Below are positions 24,735 to 30,502 of a stretch of DNA of 32,000 bases, in pieces. The DNA comes from Nodosilinea sp. BSH.14 (GTDB lineage: Bacteria > Cyanobacteriota > Cyanobacteriia > Phormidesmidales > Phormidesmidaceae): NCBI GenBank assembly GCA_023264315.1, contig JALQST010000001.1, positions 1,544 to 33,543 of the forward strand, read 5' to 3'. The first letter of the stretch is position 1; each line of letters begins with the position of its first letter. The notes under the pieces are model-generated. The model was given only the letters and a program-made list of their open reading frames with translations. It ran no database searches and had not been told where the DNA came from. Both the position numbers and the translations under genes were made by a program.

Positions 24735-24900
24735 CTACTTGGGTGATCCTACACGGACACGGAGAGCCGCCCATGGACATCGTGCAGGCTGCGACTGAAT
24801 TATGTTAAAGGTCAATGCTGCGATATTTCTTGGCGAGTTTGCGAAGGCTTCGGTTAAAGGTGGGTGAGGCTTCAACTTAAATTCTGGGCTGGTCAGTCAT
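24735..24900 (-). pseudogene. Decayed RelE/ParE-family toxin gene
   Basis: Hand translation from an ATG overlapping the upstream ORF's stop (ATGACTGA) gives MTDQPRI*VEASPTFNRSLRKLAKKYRSIDL*, with two in-frame TAA codons. A shifted frame then gives ...[24 protein letters not shown]. The pattern ..F.R.LRKLAKKYRSI..DL...I..L then ...RVRVG matches the cyanobacterial RelE/ParE toxins I recall. The gene is truncated just before the deoC start. Confidence 0.45.
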
Positions 24901-25132
24901 TTTCTAGACCTTCCCATAGTTGTGAGACAGAAATGGTTTGGCCTATCATGGCTTCGTGCCAAGCTTGCTTGAAGTCTTCCAATAGGTCTGCTTGCGAAGG
25001 TTCGTCATCATCGGTTGTCTCTGGAATTAAGACAATAACCTCTACACGACTATTTTTGTCGAGAACGAGAGATTGATCTAAGGTAAGCTGTCCTTGCTCA
25101 TCAATCGCTCCCATGACTTTTAGTGCTTTCAT
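24893..25132 (-). CDS. Small antitoxin-like protein (orphaned partner of the decayed toxin)
   Basis: MKALKVMGAIDEQGQLTLDQSLVLDKNSRVEVIVLIPETTDDDEPSQADLLEDFKQAWHEAMIGQTISVSQLWEGLEND. The N-terminal beta-rich segment (..IDEQGxLxLDQ.L......V.VIVL), acidic linker and ..ELW tail follow the layout of small cyanobacterial antitoxins. Its stop overlaps the toxin-remnant start. Confidence 0.5.
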   Translation of the reverse strand: MKALKVMGAIDEQGQLTLDQSLVLDKNSRVEVIVLIPETTDDDEPSQADLLEDFKQAWHEAMIGQTISVSQLWEGLEND

Positions 25133-25276: not shown

Positions 25277-26077
25277 TTATTCTTCAGATTGAGACATCAA
25301 CCTGATTTCCTCGTCAGTTATGTCGTTTCTGCCAACTAACCTGTAATGGCGCTCATCAACGACTGATAGATGAAAAATATCATCACTTTCTTCAACTTCT
25401 AGCGCTAAAATAGCTACCTCATGTTCAGATAGAAATTGTAATGCAATGGGTTTGCAAATTGCATTCGGATAGCGATGCTTGCAAAACTCTACGTCTTGCA
25501 TGACTTGCACTATACCAAATCTATCTCCTGGAGATTTGGCCTGACAAGGTATAACAAAGTGTGAGCCTCTTTTGTTGACACCGAGATACACTTCATCAAT
25601 TTCAATTTGGCCAATATTTTTGATGGTTGTTCTAAGGTGGTTCTGAATAGAGTAACAAGTTAATCCAGTAAAAATATCAATAAGTCGGTTATAGCGGACT
25701 TTTGTAAGGAGTGCTTGTTCATCCGTCCCCGGAGCATACCTCCTAACGATTTCAGGTGTGGCGTCTGGAATTTTTATTTTTTGTCGGTTAGTGGTGGGTG
25801 CAATTTTACCAGGTGATGCCAACCTAAACTCATAGGTACTAATTCCTGTTCCTACTATGATCCATTCATAGCCAGACTCACATGTCATTTTGATTGACTC
25901 AGGCAATTCTCTGCGAAATCTGTATGAGTATGGAATGTCGCCAAGGTTTTTAATGCGTGAAATACCCAGATCATCACACGCCTGTGCCAATTCATCACGA
26001 TCAAAGGGAACCTTGATGTTGCCATCAACATAGTTCTTGATAAAAACTCTTTCGATAATATGGTCGTACTTGCTCAT
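25277..26077 (-). CDS. Candidate Type II restriction endonuclease (family not recognised)
   Basis: It starts 1 nt after the C5-MTase stop (TAG-c-ATG on the minus strand). A PD-(D/E)XK-like arrangement IEID161EVYLGVNKRGSHFVIPCQ179AK181 lies in the C-terminal half. The N-terminal about 90 aa could be a DNA-recognition module. Confidence 0.55.
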   Translation of the reverse strand: MSKYDHIIERVFIKNYVDGNIKVPFDRDELAQACDDLGISRIKNLGDIPYSYRFRRELPESIKMTCESGYEWIIVGTGISTYEFRLASPGKIAPTTNRQKIKIPDATPEIVRRYAPGTDEQALLTKVRYNRLIDIFTGLTCYSIQNHLRTTIKNIGQIEIDEVYLGVNKRGSHFVIPCQAKSPGDRFGIVQVMQDVEFCKHRYPNAICKPIALQFLSEHEVAILALEVEESDDIFHLSVVDERHYRLVGRNDITDEEIRLMSQSEE

Positions 26078-26078
26078 G

Positions 26079-27410
26079 CTACACTCTCGCCAGTCGTTTT
26101 CTCTTGGGAATTACATCATCTGGAATATTCCAGTATTTTGATGATTGACCCATATTGAAGCGCAATAACTCTTCATCCTGCTGATTTAATGTGTAGGCTT
26201 CAAAGTCTATCTCATCTAAATCCATAGCCTTGATAACTTGCCTCCCTAAAGATTTAGACAGAAATGGAATGACTGAATTTCCAATTTCTCTAAATCCGTG
26301 CCAAATCGTGTTATGGAAACGAAACCAGTCAGGAAAGGTATGTAATCGTGCGGCTTCTCGTACAGTAATACACCGAGGTTCGGAGTAGTGTATTGGTCTG
26401 GGTGCAGTGTATGCGCCTTTGTCGCTAGCTGTTCCAGCCCTTAAGGTATTACATTGGCCATTAATTGCTAGTTTAAAGAATCTACTTGTTCTTTCTACGC
26501 TGCCTGGATTAGTTGCCCTAAATTTCTCAATCGATGTTTGGGTATGCTTAGAACCAATGTGGCCATAAACCTTGTTTGAGACTAATCTCCTATGACACAG
26601 TGAATATTCAGCGTTTGGCTGGATCGAAAAATTATGCCTTAATCCTGAATAGTCTAATTTCGATGTATCTATGCCATTATCACCTTTAGTAAAGGCACTA
26701 TGTTTTGCTAAATCATGGATAGCTTCTCCGCAGGTTGACAGCGGCAATAAGCCTATATTGCACAATAGCCCTGCTGAATCAATATCTGCATGAGTGGGTA
26801 AAGGATACCTGGCCTTATTAACATCTAGCCGCGAGCCTAAAAGAATTAGTCTTTTCCTTGTTTGCGGTGCTCCATACAGAGAGGCATCCAGAACAGATAT
26901 GGGTTTATCAATAACATATCCAACACTTTCAAGCTCAGAAATCAATTCGTCTAAGAATCGTCTATGTCTCCCTGATGCCATGCCAGGAACATTTTCAAAG
27001 ATAAAATATTTTGGCTTTATTTCCTTGATCATCCGAACATACTCGAATACCAATACATTTCTAGGATCTCCAAGTTGTCGCTTGCCGATGGAAGAAAAAC
27101 CTTGGCAGGGCGGTCCACCTGCAATCAGATCTATTTCACAGGAAAATTCGTTGTGTTCTATGGCGTTGAGAAGTTCTTGTGAAGTGAGTTGAGAAATATC
27201 TTTGCAAATCGTCGCACTATAAGGAAAGTTAAAATGATGGACTAGGGCATGAATGGCATCAAACTCCACAGCCGCAGCAATATCAAAGCCCGCTGCTTCT
27301 AAGCCGAGAGACATTCCGCCACATCCGGAGAAAAGGTCTATAGCTACGGGTCTTTTCATCGTCTGAATACGTCTTTTTTCCGTATAGATAGGTTTGCAGG
27401 CTGGAATCAT
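26079..27410 (-). CDS. DNA (cytosine-5)-methyltransferase
   Basis: Motif I AIDLFSGCGG, motif IV GGPPCQGFS, motif VI FENVPG, motif VIII QTRKRLIL, motif IX TVREAARLHTFPD and motif X EIGNSV, with a variable target-recognition region between VIII and IX. The likely true start is MKRPVAIDLF (about 27359), 17 codons inside the track ORF. Confidence 0.92.
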   Translation of the reverse strand: MIPACKPIYTEKRRIQTMKRPVAIDLFSGCGGMSLGLEAAGFDIAAAVEFDAIHALVHHFNFPYSATICKDISQLTSQELLNAIEHNEFSCEIDLIAGGPPCQGFSSIGKRQLGDPRNVLVFEYVRMIKEIKPKYFIFENVPGMASGRHRRFLDELISELESVGYVIDKPISVLDASLYGAPQTRKRLILLGSRLDVNKARYPLPTHADIDSAGLLCNIGLLPLSTCGEAIHDLAKHSAFTKGDNGIDTSKLDYSGLRHNFSIQPNAEYSLCHRRLVSNKVYGHIGSKHTQTSIEKFRATNPGSVERTSRFFKLAINGQCNTLRAGTASDKGAYTAPRPIHYSEPRCITVREAARLHTFPDWFRFHNTIWHGFREIGNSVIPFLSKSLGRQVIKAMDLDEIDFEAYTLNQQDEELLRFNMGQSSKYWNIPDDVIPKRKRLARV

Positions 27411-27544
27411 AGCGGGTTTCAGTGGAATGCGGTATAGACAAGGGGCTTAAGCCTCTTGTTCACAGGACTGGATTTGCTTAGGTATACCTCATTTATTAGA
27501 GAACTGCTATATCTACGTTCTGAATCAATGCAAAATATGGCAAA

Positions 27545-28570
27545 TTATAACTCATCTATTTGACATCCCTGGCTTTTGGCAATTTCGAGGATCGGACGAA
27601 TGTTGCCAATTCCCCATTGGTTGCAAACAGCAATCACTTTTCCTTCTCCAGTTTCAAGTAATTGTTCTTCGTTTAGGAAATAGCGTTTTGATCCTCCTTT
27701 GGCTTCAGCTTTCTCTAGCAAGGCTACAACGCCATAGCTGCCATGAATAGTATCGGGAAATATTTGTCGTAGCTCTTCAAAAGTTGTATCTGGATGTGTC
27801 TGAAGATAGTGAGTAACAATAGCTAGTACAAGCTGGCGTTTATTGTAAGTCTTTCCCAAGAATTGATATTGTGTCTTGTCCTTGCTAGAATTAGCAACGG
27901 CTCGTTGAGCTGACACTTGTTCTCGAACTTTTACCTGATACTCTTCAGCTTCCGGCAAGGGAATTATCTGTTCAATATCAAGTAGTAGTTCTTCGCCAAG
28001 TCTATAGGGCTGTAGGCGAACGCAGCGAATATCCAAGTCACGCTTATTAAGCCACATCACAGATGTGGTTAGTTCTTTAGAGAAATTTGCGGAGGCGAGG
28101 ATAATCCTGACATCTTTGGGAAATTGCTCTTCTAATGAGTCACTCCAACCCAAGAAATTAAGAATTTCCTCTTCAGCATTTTTATCAATACATCGCTTAT
28201 CTAAATATTGCTGATGAATTTCGACAGCTCGCTTGAAAGTCAGCGTAGAAACCATCGCAGCATAGCGTAGCGCTTGCAATTCCATATGAGCGCCCGTTTC
28301 ATCTCTCTTCAGCTCGATGACCACTAAATTTGCTTGCTTGTCAATGCCAAGTAAATCAATTCTCCTAGCCCCTTCAGTCCACTCTGAAAACTCCTCAGCA
28401 ATTACTAGGGTGTCTGGAGAAATTACCGTGATCTTATCTCTCAAGGCAGCTTGAAGATCAGTTCGTTCTTGAATGCCTTCTGTTCCAAACTGCGTACTCT
28501 TGATCTCGATGATTTGCTTATCCTTAAAGGTATAAATAGGCATAGGCTTAGAAGTCAGACTTGTCATCAC
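27545..28570 (-). CDS. RecB/NucS-like PD-(D/E)XK nuclease fused to middle and C-terminal domains of unknown function
   Basis: RRID72LLGIDKQANLVVIE86LK88RDETGAHMELQALRYAAMV matches the NucS/DUF91-type core (G.iDLL..D..G.lVViElKR......v.Q.lrY). It is followed by a region ending ...IRCVRLQPYRLGEELLLDIEQIIPLPEAEEY, and by a roughly 105-aa C-terminal module (YQFLGKTYNKRQLVLAIV...KRYFLNEEQLLETGEGKVIAVCNQWGIGNI). The start codon is GTG. Confidence 0.6.
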   Translation of the reverse strand: MMTSLTSKPMPIYTFKDKQIIEIKSTQFGTEGIQERTDLQAALRDKITVISPDTLVIAEEFSEWTEGARRIDLLGIDKQANLVVIELKRDETGAHMELQALRYAAMVSTLTFKRAVEIHQQYLDKRCIDKNAEEEILNFLGWSDSLEEQFPKDVRIILASANFSKELTTSVMWLNKRDLDIRCVRLQPYRLGEELLLDIEQIIPLPEAEEYQVKVREQVSAQRAVANSSKDKTQYQFLGKTYNKRQLVLAIVTHYLQTHPDTTFEELRQIFPDTIHGSYGVVALLEKAEAKGGSKRYFLNEEQLLETGEGKVIAVCNQWGIGNIRPILEIAKSQGCQIDEL

Positions 28571-29026
28571 CTCAGTCTAGACATTATCGATCAACTCGGC
28601 AGGGCAAGACTCGCAGCTTAAGGAATTGATCATCATCGCACTTGTGGAAACCCTATCTAGCCATTGCTTGCGCCACCATCACTACTCTTCTTCAGGAGCA
28701 GTTTCAGGACTGGCAAGGGGCACCGCCTGAGTTACGCGAATCGGGGTTTCGGTTTCACCAGACGGGGGCATTCTCCGGTGCGGCCTAGGTGAGGGTGCTG
28801 TGGGGTGGGGCGGGTAGGAGGGGCAGAAACCCGTTTCATGGTGGGCCATTGGGGGCCGCTTTGGGGGTAAAGCGCTAGGCTGACGAACCTCACAGGTGTC
28901 GATGCCTCGTTACAGGGACAACCGTTGAAGTACTGGGTCGAACGCCCTATCCCCTTGCCTATGCCTCAACATCCTGATTGAATAGGGGCATCAAAAAAGT
29001 GAACTTTTTTAAACGGGGAGTCGCCC

Positions 29027-30502
29027 ATGTACATCGTGCAGATTGCTTCAGAATGCGCTCCGGTCATCAAAGCCGGAGGTCTGGGCGATGTGGTTTATGG
29101 CCTCAGCCGCGAGCTAGAAACGCGGGGCCACTGCGTCGAAATCATTCTGCCGAAGTACGACTGTATGCGCTACGACCACATTTGGGGTCTGCACGAAGCC
29201 TACTGCGACCTGGTTGTGCCCTGGTATGGGACGGATATTCTCTGCGATGTGTATTGCGGCTGGGTGCATGGGCGGCTGTGTTTCTTCATCGAGCCCAAGT
29301 CCTGGGAAATGTTCTTCAACCGGGGCTGCTACTACGGCTGCGACGATGACCCGATGCGGTTTGCCTTCTTTAGCAAGGCGGCGATGGAATTTCTCCTCCG
29401 CAGCAACAAGCGCCCGGATGTGATCCACTGCCATGACTGGCAAACCGGGCTGATCCCGGTGATGCTGTTCGAGATTTATAAATACAACGGCATGGAGTTC
29501 CAGCGGGTGCTCTACACCATCCACAACTTCAAGCACCAGGGCATCGCCGGGGTGGATATCCTCGAAGCCACCGGACTCAATCGGCCCGAATACTACTTCC
29601 AGTTTGGTCAACTGCGCGACAACTTCAACCCCTTTGCCATCAACTTCATGCAGGGGGGCATCACCTATGCCAACCATGTCAACACCGTGTCGCCCTACCA
29701 CGCCTGGGAAGCCCAGCACACCGACCAGGGCTTTGGCCTAGGGCACACCCTCCACACCCACCAGTACAAATTCTCCGGCATCCTCAACGGCCTAGACTAC
29801 GAGGTCTGGAACCCGGAGGTGGATCGCTATATTCCCCATCACTACGGCATTTCCACCTTTGAAGACAAGGTACTGAACACCAAGGGGCTACGGGAACGGC
29901 TGATGCTGGCCCACGGCGATAAGCCCATCGTCGCTTTCATTGGCCGTTTGGATGACCAAAAGGGCGTTCACCTCGTCCACCACGCCATTTACTACACCCT
30001 CAGCCGAGGCGGGCAGTTTGTGCTGCTGGGTTCCGCCACCGAAAAGGGCATTAACGACTGGTTCTGGCACGAAAAGCTGCACCTGAACGACAACCCCGAC
30101 GTACATTTGGAGCTTGGCTTCAACGAAGAACTGGCCCACTTGATCTACGCCGGATCGGACATGATTGTGGTGCCCAGCAATTTTGAACCCTGCGGCCTCA
30201 CCCAGATGATCGGCCTCAAGTACGGCACGGTGCCCATCGTGCGCGGCGTGGGCGGCTTGGTGAACACCGTGTTTGATTGGGACTACGACGGCTACCACGA
30301 ACCGGAGGAGCGCAACGGCTTTGTCTTCTTCCAAAGCGACACTGTGGCTCTAGAATCCGCGATGGATCGGGCCTTTGACATTTGGGAAAAAGAGCCCAAA
30401 CTCTTCCAGCAAATCGCCCAGCAGGGAATGCAGTACGACTTTTCCTGGAATCAGCCCGGTCAGGACTATGTGGCGCTTTACGATCACATCCGCCACAAGT
30501 AG
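29027..30502 (+). CDS. glgA: Glycogen synthase (GlgA2-type)
   Basis: MYIVQIASECAPVIKAGGLGDVVYGLSRELETRGH... over 491 aa, with a C-terminal SNFEPCGLTQMIGLKYGTVPIVRGVGGLVNTV motif. Confidence 0.95.
   Translation: MYIVQIASECAPVIKAGGLGDVVYGLSRELETRGHCVEIILPKYDCMRYDHIWGLHEAYCDLVVPWYGTDILCDVYCGWVHGRLCFFIEPKSWEMFFNRGCYYGCDDDPMRFAFFSKAAMEFLLRSNKRPDVIHCHDWQTGLIPVMLFEIYKYNGMEFQRVLYTIHNFKHQGIAGVDILEATGLNRPEYYFQFGQLRDNFNPFAINFMQGGITYANHVNTVSPYHAWEAQHTDQGFGLGHTLHTHQYKFSGILNGLDYEVWNPEVDRYIPHHYGISTFEDKVLNTKGLRERLMLAHGDKPIVAFIGRLDDQKGVHLVHHAIYYTLSRGGQFVLLGSATEKGINDWFWHEKLHLNDNPDVHLELGFNEELAHLIYAGSDMIVVPSNFEPCGLTQMIGLKYGTVPIVRGVGGLVNTVFDWDYDGYHEPEERNGFVFFQSDTVALESAMDRAFDIWEKEPKLFQQIAQQGMQYDFSWNQPGQDYVALYDHIRHK

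Follow-up and report, generated by a model that had tools for sequence, protein, structure and literature searches.

A nuclease gene of the PDC-S11 (Madara) family beside a Type II restriction-modification pair in the cyanobacterium Nodosilinea sp. BSH.14: a candidate single-protein anti-phage defense

Within a 32,000-nucleotide (nt) stretch of DNA from the cyanobacterium Nodosilinea sp. BSH.14 (contig JALQST010000001.1, positions 1,544 to 33,543; referred to here as the window), a 341-codon open reading frame (ORF) running from a GTG on the minus strand (27545-28570) encodes a nuclease that, by sequence comparison, is almost certainly a full-length member of the PDC-S11 ("Madara") family. Our analysis established this family membership, together with an intact catalytic motif, a two-domain architecture, the modular re-use of the C-terminal domain in other proteins and the independence of the gene from the adjacent restriction-modification (R-M) pair. 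By analogy with an E. coli member of the family, we consider the gene a probable self-contained, single-protein anti-phage nuclease of a Type IV-like, modification-dependent kind. In the mechanism that we propose, the C-terminal module of 111 amino acids (aa) would bind a feature of the invading DNA (a modified base absent from the host being the most likely one), and this binding would license the N-terminal NucS/RecB-type domain (D63, E77, K79, Q90, Y94), probably as a dimer, to cut DNA. The island that carries the gene would then be layered, with a nuclease against modified DNA on top of a Type II R-M system against unmodified DNA. All coordinates are window positions, and residues are numbered in a 332-aa version of the protein unless the 341-aa version is named.

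The family assignment comes from the PADLOC profile for PDC-S11 (PDLC04909), which matches residues 10-331 of the 341-aa ORF over profile positions 1-332 of 347 with an expectation value (E) of 6.1e-124. The family is already known: PADLOC-DB has listed it from version 2.0.0 (2023) onward, and its validation, under the name Madara, followed in 2026. The relevant preprint, dated 11 September 2026 and located by full-text search, renames PDC-S11 of E. coli ECOR34 "Madara" (bioRxiv 10.64898/2026.09.05.749240). In ECOR34 this single-gene system lies divergent from brxA of a BREX system; it restricts phage T4 carrying glucosyl-hydroxymethylcytosine (ghmC) as well as other Tevenvirinae, and T4 with unmodified cytosine, T4(C), escapes it (10.64898/2026.09.05.749240). 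The protein starts with a NucS-like domain, which a linker connects to a C-terminal sensor; it is active alone from a plasmid, and its defense is lost in the D63A mutant (10.64898/2026.09.05.749240). A survey of BREX systems (PMC12839542) does not mention NucS-like proteins.

Searching plasmid records by tblastn led to a 332-aa protein of E. coli and Klebsiella, WP_001240354.1, that aligns with the window protein at 47% identity over 331 of 332 residues (BLASTP, E 7e-105), and whose best PADLOC hidden Markov model (HMM) is also PDLC04909 (5.8e-114). Its catalytic aspartate is at position 63, and about 500 of 5,426 complete E. coli genomes carry the protein. In each of the three E. coli chromosomes examined, as on one Klebsiella plasmid, its gene and brxA are divergently oriented within a BREX-1 island. 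Because its PDC-S11 assignment, brxA-divergent position, D63 numbering and architecture all agree with the description of ECOR34 Madara, we infer that the two are the same protein, an equation based on these concordant features and not on the sequence of the ECOR34 protein. The anti-phage activity, the dependence on cytosine modification and the inactivation by D63A that we carry over by analogy are thus results for the E. coli homologue. D63 of the window protein is the position whose mutation inactivates Madara, and the catalytic PD-(D/E)XK motif around it is intact. In E. coli M9682-C1, the gene on the other side of the Madara homologue carries the annotation of a phosphorothioated-DNA-binding restriction endonuclease (L103 5110-5982), a second modification-dependent nuclease in the same island.

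An AlphaFold2 (AF2) model built on 70 homologues, with a mean predicted local distance difference test score (pLDDT) of 86, divides the protein into a nuclease domain (residues 1-197), a helical linker (199-219) and a compact C-terminal domain (222-332). The nuclease domain, of the NucS/RecB PD-(D/E)XK type, is placed at 27953..28543 (minus strand) by this model, by Foldseek and by sub-threshold NucS profiles; the linker segment (residues 198-221, 27881..27952, minus strand) contains the modeled helix and has pLDDT values below 50 at residues 213-219. Compared with the PDB by Foldseek, the nuclease domain best matched NucS (2vld) and EndoMS (5gke), with E of about 1e-4 over about 150 aligned columns, followed by weaker matches to HamA, SduA and Card1, while a PDB sequence search returned NucS 2vld alone (E 0.007). 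The catalytic block D63...E77-x-K79...Q90-x3-Y94 (28262..28357, minus strand) is evident in the translation, and all five residues are invariant or nearly so across the 70 aligned homologues; in a phmmer alignment with NucS from P. abyssi (2vld), D, E-x-K and Q-x3-Y fall gap-free against residues 158-192.

An earlier interpretation of this ORF, made by a model from the DNA letters and their translations (hereafter the sequence-only reading), had proposed a NucS/RecB-type PD-(D/E)XK core and, beyond it, an additional C-terminal module. The AF2 model, the Foldseek matches and the conservation all bear this out, and the motifs that it cited (RID-LL, E-L-K, QALRYA and KRYF...IAVCNQWGIGNI) are present. 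What it took to be a separate, unassigned middle domain turns out to be the rest of the NucS-type fold, which in the AF2 model also comprises a helical insert (residues ~103-131), one more strand and helix, and a terminal beta-hairpin. The residues that it could match to nothing nameable are likewise accounted for, as the whole protein belongs to PDC-S11/Madara. A domain-split Foldseek comparison of the AF2 model, which it had suggested, led from the nuclease domain to NucS/EndoMS and from the C-terminal domain to no match in the PDB or BFVD.

Since NucS and EndoMS are the nearest solved structures and the RecB-type motif aligns with theirs without gaps, the protein could be read as a housekeeping mismatch-repair endonuclease, i.e. 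a true NucS/EndoMS orthologue. Strong full-length homology to such an enzyme, which the sequence-only reading had named as the finding that would speak against a defense role, was not observed: the NCBIfam equivalog NF003270 reaches 27.3 bits, where its cut-off is 216, and aligns with the core only (model positions 130-200 of 250), Pfam PF01939 scores 18.9-20.6 bits against a threshold of 24, and the matches of Pfam NucS_C and NCBIfam NucS are all sub-threshold and limited to the nuclease core. The core also begins at about residue 25, after a beta-hairpin, which leaves no room for the N-terminal DNA-binding domain of NucS, and the gene lies in an island of low guanine-plus-cytosine (GC) content, is patchily distributed, is deleted in a close relative and encodes an unrelated C-terminal module. 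The bit score, the missing N-terminal domain and the island-borne position effectively refute true orthology, to which we attach almost no probability.

The C-terminal domain is the putative sensor, or reader, of the protein (residues 222-332, 111 aa; 27548..27880, minus strand), delimited by the AF2 model, by a match to the PADLOC family PDC-S57 and by its fusions in other proteins. Modeled alone with AF2, it reached a pLDDT of 93.8 and a predicted template-modeling score of 0.87, and its conserved residues are D222, T224, Y226, F228, K235, F262, P263, R287, F289, W310, G311 and N314. The PDC-S57 match aligns residues 218-341 of the 341-aa version with profile positions 124-244 of 245 (E 1.8e-10), and the C-terminal domain of the E. 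coli protein matches PDC-S57 as well. Identity between the window and E. coli proteins is 56% in the nuclease domain and 29% (31 of 108 positions) in the C-terminal domain. No Pfam family matched the C-terminal domain, a search of PDB sequences with its profile gave only noise, and Foldseek found nothing significant in the PDB (best E 0.4, template-modeling score at most 0.31) or in BFVD.

An exhaustive profile search among cluster representatives (threshold E <= 0.001) found the C-terminal domain in 2,386 of them; an earlier, word-indexed search with the profile had returned mostly gene fragments and small proteins, and the architectures became visible only in the exhaustive one. The domain is placed C-terminally in proteins of ~290-300, 340-360, 415-440 and ~630 aa, and N-terminally in others. 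A Pfam scan for partner domains in 93 of the best matches, from which most of the small proteins had been omitted, identified NucS_C in 12 members, PDDEXK_4 in five, TIR_2 in four, HSDR_N_2 in three, and TIR, CAP12-PCTIR_TIR and YhcG_C in two each, with single members carrying HNH, HNH_4, HNH_5, Endonuclease_7, the GIY-YIG domains MUG113 and T5orf172, HEPN_Swt1, Mrr_cat or AAA_5. Typical layouts are a TIR domain at 5-124 with the sensor at 309-421 (P0228), PDDEXK_4 at 48-196 with the sensor at 355-472 (P0288), and a sensor at 152-267 that stands N-terminal to a McrB-like AAA_5 ATPase (P0201). These partners agree with the suggestion of the sequence-only reading that the tail recurs on restriction-type proteins, and the shuffling onto both restriction and abortive-infection (Abi) effectors is the behavior of a swappable sensor or reader module. 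In its architecture the window protein resembles Type IV enzymes, as its nuclease is joined to a domain that restriction and defense effectors and McrB-like ATPases also share.

The sensor domain also occurs without an effector. One protein of 563 aa (P0190) has four tandem copies of it, and small proteins of ~170 aa combine it with an N-terminus that is either a coiled coil or a TrmB-type winged helix-turn-helix (wHTH); P0166, P0168 and P0170 (~160-180 aa) and P0169 (209 aa) consist of nothing but these two parts. The tandem-copy protein and the small proteins may be stand-alone readers, regulators or decoys.

The fusions bear on the main rival to a Type IV-like nuclease, namely an abortive, non-selective nuclease response, in which the C-terminal domain would sense a cue of infection (modified DNA, a phage protein or a nucleotide), the nuclease would attack all DNA including that of the host, and the infected cell would die. 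We give this rival a low but appreciable probability, as the same sensor domain is fused to Abi-type effectors (TIR_2, CAP12-TIR, HEPN_Swt1), the nuclease core is weakly like HamA and SduA in structure, and a 'non-specific abortive response' was left open for Madara itself (10.64898/2026.09.05.749240). Set against this, the sensor domain is also found on Mrr_cat, HNH and HSDR_N_2 nucleases and on the McrB-like AAA_5 ATPase, and the E. coli phenotype follows the cytosine modification of the phage, in the fashion of Type IV enzymes (10.64898/2026.09.05.749240). A further, improbable variant keeps the protein as a defense nuclease of the same family and lets its C-terminal domain read a cue other than base modification, such as DNA structure, a phage protein or a small molecule. 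Such a cue would suit a domain that has no detectable similarity to known modified-base reader folds and whose small coiled-coil or wHTH relatives resemble regulators or adaptors; against it stand the fusions to the McrB-like AAA_5 ATPase and to restriction nucleases, which fit a DNA reader, and the dependence of the Madara phenotype on how the cytosine of the phage is modified (10.64898/2026.09.05.749240).

Several points weigh against a modification-dependent anti-phage nuclease. The functional evidence comes from one unreviewed preprint on a protein that is 47% identical to the window protein by way of the presumed equation with WP_001240354.1, and that preprint leaves direct cleavage of phage DNA versus a non-specific abortive response undecided (10.64898/2026.09.05.749240). 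With a sensor domain only 29% identical to that of the E. coli protein, specificity is not transferable between the two, and the modification dependence of the cyanobacterial protein is an argument by analogy. An EVE/PUA-like modified-base reader fold has been proposed for the C-terminal domain of Madara; our Foldseek searches show no EVE, PUA, SRA or YTH similarity for the domain, and a reader role is suggested by its architecture. Phages with ghmC are not known to infect cyanobacteria. Lastly, gene neighborhoods were scored, as the sequence-only reading had called for: in a crude survey of the two nearest ORFs on each side in one genome per species (264 ORFs, ~70 loci), most neighbors were housekeeping genes, defense genes were a minority, and there was no dominant partner.

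Because the C-terminal domain shares only that 29% with the E. coli Madara domain, the cyanobacterial version may read a different, cyanophage-specific modification (e.g. of the deazaguanine or aminoadenine type) and not ghmC, and the module as such may be a widespread, undescribed reader fold. We offer this extension of the Type IV-like reading tentatively and consider it the less probable outcome; if it were true, the PDC-S11/Madara family would comprise natural readers for several DNA hypermodifications.

The ORF at 27545-28570 is, as its homologies indicate, a real gene, since a protein search with its product returned more than 6,900 homologues (top match E 2e-194). Translation very probably begins at the ATG at 28543, for a protein of 332 aa, because homologues are nearly all 332 aa long with N-termini that read MPIY or MAIY, because the PDC-S11 profile alignment begins at residue 10 of the 341-aa version, and because gene calls from 13 independent metagenome contigs contain the identical 332-aa product. 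The most likely coding region is therefore 27545..28543 (minus strand; 332 aa plus stop), supported by the PDLC04909 match, the E. coli homologue and the 13 contigs, and the nine codons that follow the upstream GTG (28544..28570, minus strand) are probably untranslated, as the homologues and the PDC-S11 profile both begin at the ATG. With this start, the residues that had been designated D72, E86 and K88 become D63, E77 and K79. The protein has no match in PHROGs, and tblastn against phage genomes gave only three matches, so that the gene is not typical of phages.

Immediately downstream of the nuclease gene lie a C5-cytosine DNA methyltransferase (MTase) gene of a Type II R-M system (26079..27410, minus strand; Pfam DNA_methylase 5e-67, PADLOC MTase_II 5e-150 from residue 18) and a Type II restriction endonuclease (REase) gene (25277..26077, minus strand; PADLOC REase_II PDLC03404, 2e-100), a homologue of which is labeled 'endonuclease [Leptolyngbya sp. 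BL0902]' in its source. Both were described correctly in the sequence-only reading, and the 134-nt gap that it gave between nuclease and MTase is probably too short. The match to the PADLOC MTase profile begins at residue 18 (MKRPVAIDLFSGCGG), related contigs have the MTase called as 426-aa or 411-aa versions, and the start is probably M18 at 27359, in which case the listed 443-aa ORF begins 17 codons too early and the intergenic gap is ~185 nt. Beyond the REase gene there is an orphaned antitoxin gene of the RelN family (24893..25132, minus strand; NCBIfam NF050107, 2.5e-30).

This arrangement invites the reading of the nuclease as a third component of the R-M system, e.g. an accessory or back-up nuclease dependent on the MTase and REase, and such a component was among the roles put forward in the sequence-only reading. 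The gene directly precedes the M-R operon on the same strand and shares a low-GC island with it, and the arrangement is repeated on 13 metagenome contigs, apparently from the same organism, as they share an identical protein and gene order. A comparison with the complete genome of Leptolyngbya sp. BL0902 (CP046155.1), where the same locus is found at 89-94% nucleotide identity in the order glgA, M, R, RelN antitoxin, RelE toxin, deoC, argues strongly the other way: M, R and the toxin-antitoxin module are retained and the nuclease gene is deleted, so that the R-M pair persists without it. The segment missing from the otherwise collinear BL0902 island (27407..28519, from blastn breakpoints and alignment of the junction) takes in the nuclease gene from codon 9 and 138 nt downstream of it.

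Close relatives of the nuclease, from Microcystis and other cyanobacteria, are 81-90% identical and have no adjacent MTase or REase. The Microcystis proteins (at least 90% identity, being in the same 90% cluster) are encoded between acs and a pair formed by an 81-aa gene and an HNH gene; P0002 and P0006 (87-88%) lie between dapB and small ORFs, one of them ParE-like; P0004 (87%) is accompanied by PemK and ParE toxin-antitoxin modules; P0009 (85%) is followed by an AAA_15/AAA_21 ATPase gene; and P0022 (81%) has an AAA_16 gene upstream in a prophage-like region. In the 264-ORF survey no C5 MTase recurred among the most frequent neighbor families, and the commonest defense-type neighbors were subunits of Type I R-M systems (Methylase_S in five ORFs, HsdR-type in three), with a few integrases and transposases; these are Pfam counts, which were more useful than a PADLOC scan of 132 neighbor ORFs that was hard to read because of many redundant HMMs with one or two proteins each. 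The E. coli homologue, moreover, works alone from a plasmid (10.64898/2026.09.05.749240). A subunit role in R-M is effectively refuted by M and R persisting without the nuclease in BL0902 and by the relatives without an adjacent R-M pair, and we regard it as very improbable; the two other roles that had been proposed alongside it, a Type IV-like nuclease and a single-gene defense effector, are in line with the homology to PDC-S11/Madara. Judged from these gene orders, the nuclease gene is an independently mobile single-gene cassette, and its adjacency to the R-M pair reflects the clustering of defense genes. In two of the surveyed genomes (loci L012-L051) the neighboring ORF is itself a PDC-S11 member, and such tandem paralogues may carry different sensor domains.

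The BL0902 junction has features of its own. That genome keeps the region upstream of the nuclease gene and its first eight codons, joined to a 61-nt scar, and in the scar region (L097 5560-5672) the eight codons (MPIYTFxD) continue into a 54-nt copy similar to a stretch of the RelN antitoxin gene (window 25054-25107), which suggests a recombination event within the island. Directly downstream of its antitoxin gene, BL0902 has a gene for a RelE-like toxin of 114 aa (L097 7946-8522 compared); ~400 bp of this region (L097 8265-8662) are absent from the window, where the toxin has consequently been lost and the antitoxin kept.

The nuclease, MTase, REase and antitoxin genes share the minus strand and one island of 4.2 kb, with a GC content of ~0.40 compared with 0.58-0.62 in the flanks. 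A repeat search detected a 42-nt imperfect direct repeat with one copy at either end of the island. The right copy (29013..29054, plus strand) spans the ribosome-binding-site region and the start of the glycogen synthase gene (29027), and the left copy (24759..24800, plus strand), a degenerate copy of the glgA 5' end with 81% identity that is also present in BL0902, lies beside deoC. The duplication looks like an insertion scar of the island, given that BL0902 has the same one. The nuclease falls into the same 90%-identity cluster as Microcystis proteins (WP_286825735.1, P0335), and a GC content of ~0.40 is like that of Microcystis and unlike that of the ~0.6-GC host, which together suggest recent horizontal transfer between distantly related cyanobacteria. 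From its coexistence with the MTase on the 13 contigs, the nuclease presumably tolerates the 5-methylcytosine (m5C) pattern of that enzyme.

Between the nuclease and MTase genes there is a 22-bp palindrome, ACAAGGGGCTT/AAGCCTCTTGT, centered on CTTAAG at 27438..27459, with one mismatch and unique in the window. It had been taken as a hairpin that might set the nuclease gene apart as its own transcription unit; the palindrome exists, and the evidence for such a unit is weak. It has no T-run, a terminator scan of the window does not call it, and RNA from the 185-nt intergenic region is no more stably folded than shuffled controls (z = 0.15). The palindrome is confined to contigs with the same island and is absent downstream of homologues elsewhere. 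Roles as a terminator or a conserved operator were rejected on the lack of a T-run, the z score and this absence. Its position inside the segment deleted in BL0902 implies that it travels with the nuclease cassette.

For annotation, it follows that the gene is better described as a Madara/PDC-S11-type defense nuclease than as a hypothetical or "membrane" protein, and that it is not part of the R-M system. The newly validated E. coli defense family is thereby extended to cyanobacteria, including Microcystis at >=90% identity, and the layering of a Type II R-M system with a Type IV-like nuclease mirrors that of BREX with Madara and of BREX with BrxU. The remaining interest lies in the sensor domain, which is widely shuffled among effectors and divergent in the window protein; its ligand could reveal DNA modifications of cyanophages and yield modification-specific reagents.

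Among known systems, Shedu SduA (8ps5) and Hachiman HamA (8vxy) are weakly similar to the window protein in the structure of the PD-(D/E)XK core (Foldseek E 0.07-0.08) and, like it, couple a defense nuclease to a variable sensor, but have no sequence-level relationship to it and differ in domain organization and partners. PDC-S57, a candidate single-gene defense family of PADLOC, has the C-terminal sensor domain in common, whereas its own N-terminal half is unrelated to the NucS-type nuclease. NucS/EndoMS (2vld, 5gke) is the best structural match and shares the RecB-type core with gap-free D, E-x-K and Q-x3-Y; the window protein differs in lacking the N-terminal DNA-binding domain, in its reversed order with the nuclease first, in the helical insert at ~103-131, in the extra C-terminal module and in being carried on an island. 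Modular Type IV enzymes, such as PvuRts1I/AbaSI (an N-terminal PD-(D/E)XK domain with a C-terminal SRA-like reader of hydroxymethylcytosine or ghmC), MspJI, McrBC and GmrSD/BrxU, are similar in uniting a nuclease and a reader of modified DNA in one polypeptide that has no cognate methyltransferase and often stands beside R-M or BREX as a complementary layer. The window protein departs from them in a reader with no detectable SRA, EVE, YTH or PUA similarity, in a nuclease of the NucS type instead of the Vsr, Mrr or HNH type, and in a modification dependence that is putative. Closest of all, via the E. coli homologue, is Madara (PDC-S11, E. coli ECOR34). Its host is not a cyanobacterium, where H-NS-type silencing is inapplicable, its neighbor is BREX instead of a Type II m5C R-M pair, and the modification that it reads may differ from that read by the window protein, given C-terminal domains that are 29% identical. 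The two nevertheless have in common the PDLC04909 HMM, a length of 332 aa with collinear 47% identity, the residues D63/E77/K79/Q90/Y94, the succession of nuclease, linker helix and homologous C-terminal domain, and the placement of a single gene beside another defense based on DNA methylation.

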